From: Escherichia coli
GTDB taxonomy: Bacteria; Pseudomonadota; Gammaproteobacteria; Enterobacterales; Enterobacteriaceae
NCBI RefSeq assembly: GCF_003334765.1
Contig: NZ_QOWT01000077.1
DNA length: 1,647 bases
Reading direction: 5' to 3' (one strand)
The notes beneath the pieces are model-generated. The model was not told the DNA's origin, ran no database searches, and was given only the letters and a program-made list of their open reading frames with translations. Of this stretch, positions 1-1,570 are shown piece by piece (within the stretch, counting starts at the first letter, position 1; each line of letters starts with the position of its first letter). The position numbers and the translations under genes were made by a program.

Positions 1-77
1 ACCAACCGCATGGCTGCCTGTTCCGTGCAAATGGGCTTTGCAGGGGGCTGGCGCGGTTCCTGGCGACCTGAAAGCCC
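1..77. repeat. Terminal direct repeat, copy 1 (identical to 1571-1647); circular-closure overlap
   Basis: Base-by-base identity of 1-77 with 1571-1647 (77/77). The repeat sits exactly at both window ends, the signature of a circular molecule written linearly with a k-mer overlap. Implied unit length is 1570 bp. Confidence 0.9.
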
Positions 78-264
78 CTGGTTAGGGGTATCGGCGCGCT
101 TGACCTCCTGAGAGCCTCTGTAAGCGTTTTTCGCGCCTTCCATGCCCTGGCGGGCATCTAAAACCCGTTTCGTGCGTCTGAGAGCTTTTGAGCGCGTTTG
201 AGGGGCTATCTGGCGACTCATCCCCAAAAGAACAACACCGGGATCACCGACAACATGCGAGAGG

Positions 265-328
265 TGATCCCGCTCGCCGCAAGTCGATGACCGAGCGTAG
301 CGAGCGAATCGACGAGGAAGCGGAAGAG
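265..328 (-). other. ColE1/pMB1-like block downstream of bom (candidate single-strand initiation / primosome-assembly-like site)
   Basis: The minus strand reads CTCTTCCGCTTCCTCG ... CTCGCTACGCTCGGTC ... GCGGCGAGCGGGATCA. From memory this resembles pBR322/pUC sequence between bom and ori (CTCTTCCGCTTCCTCGCTCACTGACTCGCTGCGCTCGGTCGTTCGGCTGCGGCGAGCGGTATCA), with a 16-bp identical run and roughly 80-85% identity over about 60 bp. It contains a CGCTCG/CGAGCG stem. The functional label is inference. Confidence 0.5.
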
Positions 329-364
329 AACCGGAAGCCACATTGAGCACTTACGCACTGATGC

Positions 365-1343: not shown

Positions 1344-1478
1344 GCTAGCGGCAGGCGGACAATCAGGGGCTACGTGTTAACGTTCTGACCATGATTGTCT
1401 ATCCTGCATTGCTCTTTTGCCGCCTCAAAATCCTTTGCGTGTTTTTGCTCCCCGTTCTCCAGAAAAAACCGAGCCGCC

Positions 1479-1532
1479 ACGGTTCCGGCAGCGCCTTGAG
1501 CGCTACCGGAAACCGTCTGGGGAGAACCCCAG
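1479..1532. repeat. Nested inverted repeats / hairpins in the GC-rich region
   Basis: ACGGTTCCGG (1479-1488) pairs with CCGGAAACCGT (1506-1516), enclosing AGCGC-CTTGA-GCGCT. A perfect hairpin CTGGGG-AGAA-CCCCAG follows at 1517-1532. No adjacent T-run, so these are not intrinsic terminators. Confidence 0.6.
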
Positions 1533-1570
1533 ACCCCCATCGCTGCAACACCGACGGTCTACGACCACCT

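Follow-up and report, generated by a model that had tools for sequence, protein, structure and literature searches.

Two types of single-strand initiation (ssi) signal are among the closest described counterparts of the element analysed here. Signals of the phiX174 type, among them ssiA and ssiB of ColE1 and the n′-primosome assembly sites (n′-pas), are stable non-coding hairpins that work independently of a plasmid's own initiator, and the primase-dependent signals of the G4 type consist of two to three adjacent stem-loops spread over approximately 80–100 nucleotides (nt); plasmid R1 carries a signal of the latter type, the G-site, downstream of oriR. Rolling-circle replicons contain single-strand origins (ssoA and ssoU), which are highly structured, host-factor-dependent cassettes swapped between differing Rep genes. 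In the small plasmids pHW126, pIGRK and pIGMS31, an origin-adjacent 'ssi-like palindrome' is dispensable for replication, and its deletion raises the copy number and causes multimerisation. Here we analyse two adjacent hairpins at positions 1479–1532 of a 1,647-nt stretch of Escherichia coli DNA (contig NZ_QOWT01000077.1 of assembly GCF_003334765.1; the window), which represents a plasmid of the pKL1 type.

Plasmids of this type are among the smallest natural replicons, and almost a third of their sequence is a conserved non-coding module to which no function has been assigned; the literature on pKL1 and Col(MG828) within our reach holds passing citations and no functional data on the hairpin region. 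The initial annotation, made from the sequence alone, had suggested that the hairpins act in cis as structures in single-stranded DNA (ssDNA) or encode a structured RNA. We find that no other 54-nt stretch of the plasmid folds as stably, that the hairpins accompany unrelated initiators almost unchanged and that they have decayed in two lineages with another replicon, and we tentatively read them as a signal of the ssi type that depends on host factors rather than on Rep.

An exceptionally stable pair of hairpins downstream of repA

The window is a circular plasmid of 1,570 bp read past its own start, with bases 1–77 identical to 1571–1647, and it shares 98.5% identity with the E. coli plasmid pKL1 (NC_002145, 1,549 bp). 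Its sole convincing gene, repA (867–1343, + strand), encodes a 158-aa helix-turn-helix initiator, and 136 nt separate the repA stop codon (1343) from hairpin 1. The region had been described as a GC-rich stretch of approximately 490 bp between the rep stop and a ColE1-like block, a figure that is correct because the window is a circle: the distance from 1343 to 270 is 496 bp.

The coordinates given for the nested inverted repeat and the adjoining perfect stem-loop proved exact. Hairpin 1 (1479–1516) is a 38-nt imperfect palindrome (ACGGTTCCGGCAGCGCCTTGAGCGCTACCGGAAACCGT) with 15 pairs, one C·A mismatch and a 5-nt loop; its outer stem of 10 bp contains one bulged A and is followed by an internal loop (1489/1490 and 1504/1505), a GCGC inner stem and the loop CTTGA. 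Hairpin 2 (1517–1532, CTGGGG-AGAA-CCCCAG) has a perfect 6-bp stem and a 4-nt loop, and can be extended to 8 bp (1515–1534) if hairpin 1 gives up its last two pairs. A weaker hairpin 3 (1537–1557, CCATCG..CGACGG) belongs to the same unit and folds on the − strand, where it has a G·T wobble at the place of an A·C mismatch on the + strand. To the left, hairpin 1 is preceded by a conserved flank (ACCGAGCCGCC, 1468–1478), which includes the junction zone at its base. None of these four features is assigned to a strand.

Folded as ssDNA, the 54-nt hairpin pair reached −22.4 kcal/mol on the + strand (z = −7.1) and −24.2 kcal/mol on the − strand (z = −7.4), a stability matched by none of 200 shuffles; hairpin 1 alone gave z = −5.5 (+ strand) and −6.3 (− strand). 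Because the site had originally been picked as the best-looking one, we corrected for this choice by comparing best windows: the hairpin pair is the most stable 54-nt window of the whole plasmid and outdoes the best window in each of 60 dinucleotide-shuffled plasmids (mean −13.0, s.d. 2.3, lowest −21.1). By both the DNA fold z-scores and this rank, the locus thus has the stable ssDNA hairpins that characterize a phiX174-type primosome assembly site.

The same 54 nt fold even more tightly as RNA (−33.3 and −40.7 kcal/mol; z = −6.1 and −6.7), which would also suit an element that acts in transcripts from an upstream gene, stopping or stabilising them and shielding the replication or priming module from read-through. 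Termination could then be helped by Rho on the C-rich, G-poor tract downstream, where the 68 nt past hairpin 2 hold 29 C and 13 G on the + strand, and a purely structural RNA element would tolerate the inversions described below. We nevertheless regard such a role as unlikely. A co-oriented open reading frame (ORF) of at least 140 aa does end 33–270 nt upstream in approximately 14 of 24 distinct contexts, but this is near the random-orientation expectation, and plasmids of the L003 type, L038, L039 and L045 (handles of this form denote individual relatives) have no co-oriented gene upstream. The G+C-rich stem-loop downstream of a gene resembles an intrinsic terminator and one − strand site was flagged by a terminator scan, but no T/U-run follows on the + strand, where the scan found no site. 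The − strand site is an alternative stem at a T6 run (1468 to 1463), 10 nt past hairpin 1, that is restricted to the pKL1 lineage, and we rejected an intrinsic terminator on these grounds. The earlier observation that no T-run adjoins the hairpins is therefore correct for the + strand and not for the − strand of this lineage. A terminator would, moreover, need no invariant CTTGA loop.

Searches against Rfam gave no match in 1344–1647 even at E values of up to 10, and gathering-threshold scans of five related loci were empty; as a positive control, RNAI was recovered at 80.8 bits in the ColE1-type plasmid L134. With no Rfam match, no conserved promoter and one-sided stem changes that favour neither strand (see below), the proposal of a structured RNA gained no positive support.

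The initial annotation had seen no convincing coding sequence in the region, and the relatives bear this out. Mechanical ORFs of 74, 60 and 56 aa exist, and some RefSeq records carry a 'hypothetical protein' over the region (ORF 1417–1641 on the + strand, or − strand ORFs). Changes in the length of an A-run shift the + frame in most relatives and stop codons occur in several, indels of 8 nt and 1 nt interrupt the region, the ATG of the − frame is present only in the pKL1 lineage, and inverted alleles add stop codons to the − frame in a plasmid with an identical RepA. These frameshifts, stops and indels effectively refute a small protein, to which we assign a vanishingly small probability.

The hairpins end a non-coding module shared by unrelated replicons

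As judged from sequence comparison, the hairpins are the invariant left end of a non-coding module of approximately 460 bp, which runs from 1468 to 1647 on the + strand (1571–1647 repeating 1–77) and continues across the junction at 1–360, where it contains further small hairpins and ends in a stretch similar to ColE1 ssiA. Among small plasmids of 1.2–5 kb, the module (approximately 1468 to 360, or to 640 in those that have the oriT block) is 85–95% identical. Across 25 distinct relatives, conservation per 10-nt bin lies between 0.9 and 1.0 in the module and reaches 0.95–0.99 in the hairpins, versus 0.66–0.68 immediately to their left; the hairpins are thus strongly conserved among relatives, the opposite of one of the two conditions that together had been named as a refutation.

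The initiators that accompany the module are diverse. They include relatives of pKL1 RepA down to 25% identity, a separate RepL-annotated group, a further RepL protein (L003), a DNA-binding protein similar to pAB02 ORF2, a Rep_3/RepE-type protein and the IncX initiator, and so comprise at least five unrelated types, the proteins being either unrelated or only 25–60% identical. Because the module travels with unrelated initiators, its partner must be a host factor and not a particular Rep. The hairpins can also occur on their own. The 5.6-kb plasmid L038 carries window positions 1466–1556 and no more of the module, at 81% identity and with the stems of hairpins 1 and 2 both intact (hairpin 3 is not clearly retained). 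The unit there lies next to a classical origin, approximately 30 nt past its DnaA box (TGTGGATAA), its A+T-rich stretch and its three 21-bp iterons, which adjoin a Rep_3 gene.

The hairpin unit was found in 533 of 5,426 complete E. coli genomes (approximately 10%), and 659 of its 663 copies there were on plasmids, so a generic chromosomal repeat was rejected. IncX4 and IncX1 plasmids carry parts of the module as well: segment 110–325 lies approximately 660 bp upstream of the IncX4 initiator gene. In a 34-kb plasmid, segment 1539–146 is present twice as direct repeats that flank ccdAB (L036, 2113–2290 and 2969–3146), and in the ColE1-type plasmid L134 the ssiA-like stretch occupies its canonical position between ori and rop.

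A scan of assembled genome contigs returned mostly pKL1-family contigs in assemblies of unrelated taxa. Near-complete pKL1-family sequences appeared as small, low-coverage contigs (L014–L019, L021–L027 and L032–L034) in assemblies of Streptomyces, Macrococcus, Clostridium, Flagellimonas, Rhizobium, Bradyrhizobium, Pseudomonas and others, which most likely reflect laboratory or sequencing carry-over rather than true hosts. Matches in the large GC-rich contigs L020, L023 and L028 were rejected as chance matches inside coding sequence, without hairpin context.

The typing label 'Col(MG828)' of MOB-suite/PlasmidFinder is attached to plasmids with unrelated rep genes (L001, L002, L003, L006, L008, L010, L011, L013 and L039–L042) and is missing from L004, L009 and L012; L004 and L011 encode an identical Rep, and only L011 is labelled. 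This pattern of labels, as opposed to the probe sequence itself, indicates that the marker probably sits in the shared non-coding module and not in the rep gene. A replicon-typing label that seemingly tracks such a module may group unrelated replicons.

Decay, variation and natural inversion of the hairpins

The structure has decayed in exactly two lineages, both of which carry another replicon. In the ColE1-type plasmid L006/L134, which has RNAI and Rop, two uncompensated stem changes and an 8-nt deletion reduce the fold to approximately −10 kcal/mol, versus −22 kcal/mol, and in IncX1 plasmids the 3′ arm of hairpin 1 is lost. This decay, seen in two lineages only, matches relaxed selection outside small Rep-dependent plasmids. 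Together with the extreme conservation, the unrelated rep partners and the position next to the L038 origin, it supports the earlier suggestion of a structure acting in cis.

In 21 distinct relatives the stems of hairpin 1 are nearly invariant. A metagenome scan that fixed only these stems and left the loop free yielded 89 loci, and 114 of the 115 copies counted carry the loop CTTGA, the lone exception being an inverted one. The internal-loop positions of hairpin 1 vary between mismatch and pair, with CA/AA in 77, CA/TA in 21, CT/AA in 8 and TA/TA in 5 of the 115 copies. Hairpin 2 retains its GGGG/CCCC stem with a loop that exists in approximately ten forms (AGAA, AGAC, TTCT, GTCT, AGTA, AGAG, ATA and others), and its stem shows two-sided changes to CCGGGG/CCCCGG in L010 and to CAGGGGG/CCCCCTG in L038. 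Its loop is the most variable spot of a stretch otherwise conserved at 95% or more, with approximately 18% of the 115 metagenome copies differing and some of them inverted, which suggests a mutational hotspot in an exposed loop. Hairpin 3 is paired in 83% of alignment cells, and L011 carries C1540T together with G1553A.

The conservation of hairpin 1 beyond the needs of its stems, with the loop included, would also fit recognition of the palindrome, as duplex DNA or as an extruded cruciform, by a dimeric protein of the host or the plasmid, and a palindromic site would read the same after inversion. We know of no operator consensus that matches the palindrome, and no common plasmid protein accompanies the unit; in addition, one arm has a bulged base, the internal mismatches vary freely and hairpin 2 of L038 differs in the lengths of its stem and its loop at once, as would be expected of a hairpin more than of half-sites at a fixed spacing. 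We therefore give a duplex binding site very little weight.

The covariation analysis proposed by the initial annotation proved uninformative. Over the 21 distinct sequences, 88.9% of cells were paired and two-sided change occurred in four pairs, a count that was equalled in 35 of 500 shuffles. The formal signal is weak, since the majority of pairs are invariant and inversions can mimic compensation. The inversions are seen directly in natural plasmids: the pKL1 plasmid L040, whose RepA is identical, and the 2.8-kb bacteriocin plasmid L039 have the reverse complement in place of the usual hairpin 1 interior (CAGCGCCTTGAGCGCTA to TAGCGCTCAAGGCGCTG), whereas in L010 it is the loop of hairpin 2 that is inverted. 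Approximately 8 of some 640 copies in PLSDB are inverted, in at least three plasmid backgrounds. These events indicate that the hairpin arms really interact in vivo. They also mean that one template switch is enough to produce apparently compensatory changes, which are therefore weak evidence for selection, a warning that such changes in palindromes are not clean evidence of it. Whatever the function, it must work with the interior in both orientations, and this speaks against strictly loop-specific or strand-specific recognition.

Template switching between the arms could by itself maintain quasi-palindromes that have no dedicated function and merely hitch-hike in a recently spread module. 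The natural inversion of the interiors, the one-step origin of 'compensatory' pairs, the low overall divergence of the module and a covariation that does not exceed shuffles would all be expected in that case, and the commonest form of hairpin 1 (77 of 115 copies) has a 2 × 2 internal mismatch, so perfect pairing is not favoured. We find this account improbable, given that the unit is kept in approximately 20 flank contexts and stands alone in L038 with both stems intact at 81% identity, and that decay occurred precisely in the two lineages with another replicon. The loop of hairpin 2 also varies several-fold more per site than its stem, and long palindromes are normally unstable in E. coli.

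Borders of the hairpin cassette

In 27 of the metagenome loci the homology ends on the left at 1460–1479, so that approximately 20 distinct classes of left flank converge at the base of hairpin 1, and the right ends are scattered. This clustering is in part an effect of a search that required hairpin 1. Convergence within approximately 10–15 nt of the hairpin base, together with a second breakpoint just past hairpin 2 (1539 in L036 and 1556 in L038), could mean that the hairpin is itself a recombination hotspot, at which a hairpin- or cruciform-induced break or an HUH-type nick lets small plasmids exchange rep and cargo modules; the layout of a hairpin with a flank is like that of relaxase and rolling-circle Rep nick sites. 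Besides the bias of the search, two observations make such a junction quite improbable as the explanation of the unit: the left ends are spread over approximately 1460, 1468, 1473 and 1476–1478 and do not fall at one nucleotide, and the unit is not accompanied by any cognate nuclease or relaxase, the nic sequence of the ColE1 type lying elsewhere (577–584).

A combination of the two roles, to which we give a low probability, would make the hairpin unit an unrecognised, self-contained cassette of approximately 60–90 bp that serves as a Rep-independent host priming or accessory replication signal and, through folding in vivo, also as a preferred breakpoint for swaps of initiator and cargo. If so, this would account for the presence of a single non-coding marker, typed as 'Col(MG828)', on many unrelated replicons.

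Two observations were made at loci that carry the unit. The motif GAAACGCGC(T)TCAA lies 20–35 nt to the left of hairpin 1 in L003, L008, L011, L012, L031, L059, L071 and L085, whose flanks otherwise differ; it is the inverted form of TTGAGCGCGTTT in the module (186–198, within the direct repeat 108–129/178–199) and may be a protein-binding site. L061, a 12.8-kb metagenome contig, is a tandem multimer of a 5.6-kb unit with the hairpins once per repeat; the unit joins a pKL1-type RepA to a second, Rep_3-like initiator and resembles a natural cointegrate of two small replicons.

A candidate host-dependent ssi-type signal

Of the readings considered, the one we favour, still at less than even confidence, is that the hairpins are a Rep-independent, host-factor-dependent ssDNA signal of the ssi type. 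They would constitute a cis-acting DNA secondary-structure cassette of approximately 60–90 bp (1468–1557) that uses host factors rather than the plasmid's initiator. One strand would be exposed as ssDNA during plasmid replication or after ColE1-type mobilisation, and the stable stem-loops on it would resist coating by single-stranded DNA-binding protein and so guide host proteins of priming or helicase loading to the site. Such a signal may act jointly with the ColE1 ssiA-like site approximately 330 nt further along the module.

That site is one of only two stretches of the window with ColE1 similarity by BLAST (270–328 and 577–636). It spans 270–328 on the + strand and is 83% identical to ColE1 1309–1367, the ssiA primosome-assembly region approximately 100–160 nt downstream of the ColE1 RNA/DNA switch; the role of ssiA has been described (PMC3167613). 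Since the ssiA homologue has the ColE1 orientation, its active strand should be the + strand of the window, which would be the lagging-strand template for forks moving rightward through repA into the hairpins.

The second stretch, 577–636 on the − strand, is a ColE1-type oriT/bom with a nic sequence, identical to ColE1 1462–1521 at 59 of 60 bases. If the nick falls at CTGG/CTTA between 581 and 580, which we take to be its position as for ColE1 MbeA, the nicked and transferred strand would be the − strand of the window, and the hairpins could then also take part in complementary-strand synthesis in recipients.

Several traits are shared with signals of the phiX174 type. The hairpins are stable, non-coding, independent of the plasmid's own initiator and located on a small enterobacterial plasmid; they share a module with a true ColE1 ssiA homologue, and the lack of a DnaA box anywhere in the window would fit helicase loading of the PriA type. 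They differ in having no sequence similarity to ColE1 ssiA and in the tolerance of their interiors to inversion, as the phiX174-type signals are thought to be strand-specific. Like G4-type signals, the locus has several adjacent stem-loops, three of them within 1479–1557, and in L038, where the unit adjoins the unwinding region of an iteron origin, the arrangement is comparable to that of the R1 G-site. As to the primer start of these signals, a CTG that lies shortly 3′ of the last stem-loop, no conserved counterpart is apparent here: CTG 1517–1519 is buried in the stem of hairpin 2, the nearest free + strand CTG lies approximately 26 nt past hairpin 3 and the − strand CTG is not conserved. 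Comparison with the G4 origin gave short words at chance level, the best being a 10-mer of the module outside the hairpins (1604–1613, − strand, E = 0.06).

The single-strand origins ssoA and ssoU share with the hairpins their strong structure, host-factor dependence and exchange between Rep genes. They are, however, orientation-specific and belong to rolling-circle replicons, whereas pKL1 is described with a Rep-bound oriV upstream of rep, and the hairpin stems contain no hexamers like those of an RNA-polymerase promoter. The pHW126-type palindromes, compared here by description only, likewise occur in small enterobacterial plasmids with helix-turn-helix initiators; they accompany other Rep families, and the pKL1 unit is downstream of rep and not between a conserved region and iterons. 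By analogy with this precedent, which lends the ssi reading some support, deletion of the hairpins would be predicted to raise the copy number and to give multimers. Further support may come from L038, in which the hairpins sit where helicase loading and first priming would be expected to occur.

A priming signal or single-strand origin, as first proposed, is thus the best fit to the data on structure and context, and several results weigh against it. In sequence, the hairpin unit resembles neither ColE1 ssiA nor the G4 complementary-strand origin, and no other plasmid family in PLSDB contains anything similar; the BLAST comparison with ColE1 gave no match for 1468–1570, hence none between the hairpins and ssiA or ssiB, and a search seeded with the L038 copy for deeper homologues returned the same family only. 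In pKL1 the unit lies approximately 600–700 bp from the reported origin and not beside it. One-sided stem changes favour neither strand (C1485T leaves a wobble on the + strand only and G1488A on the − strand only), formal covariation falls short as described above, and the high conservation may in part reflect a recent spread of the module. Inverted copies persist, moreover, and the unit can point either way with respect to the genes beside it, unlike a classical strand- and sequence-specific ssi. We therefore file the hairpins provisionally as an ssi-type signal without sequence relationship to characterized ssi signals. Were the host-dependent signal confirmed, minimal plasmids with very different initiators would be seen to solve the lagging-strand or helicase-loading problem with one cassette, and the unit would offer a compact part for vector design.

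Other features of the plasmid

A ColE1 RNA I/II origin was rejected, as a global alignment of window 1–345 with ColE1 1061–1385 is convincing only from 270 and the window has no RNAI match. In a search for Xer sites of the cer/dif type, no XerD arm was matched in the window at up to two mismatches, and a lone XerC-arm-like match was at chance level and away from the hairpins.

The reported pKL1 oriV lies upstream of rep and includes an integration host factor (IHF) box, Rep-binding sites and a 16-bp inverted repeat (PMC3832669). The second most stable structure of the plasmid (734–781, −20.6 kcal/mol) contains a 23-nt palindrome upstream of repA (TGTCGCATCCAGGATG..) and is presumably this inverted repeat with the RepA-binding region. 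Just past the repA stop, a palindromic element at 1357–1417 (GACAATCAGGG..CCATGATTGTC, then a T-rich stretch) is approximately 84% identical, in both orientations, to an IncX4 intergenic stretch (L035, 5372–5432) and recurs in many plasmids of approximately 33 kb. This element could be the true terminator of repA or one more shared element.

The inverted-repeat region of the ColE1-type oriT is present a second time as an inverted partial copy (365–393 versus 609–637; GGGTGTCGGGGTGAAGCCCTGACCAAGT), approximately 220 bp from oriT proper; the partial copy is 89% identical to ColE1 1494–1521 on the opposite strand. A perfect 21-bp tandem duplication at 538–579 (two copies of GCGAGGCTTGCATAGGAGTAA, one copy in pKL1) accounts for the length of 1,570 bp versus 1,549 bp. 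The repeat stops 1 nt short of the ColE1-type nick position (CTGG/CTTA, the complement of 577–584), and the duplication may be related to relaxase action.

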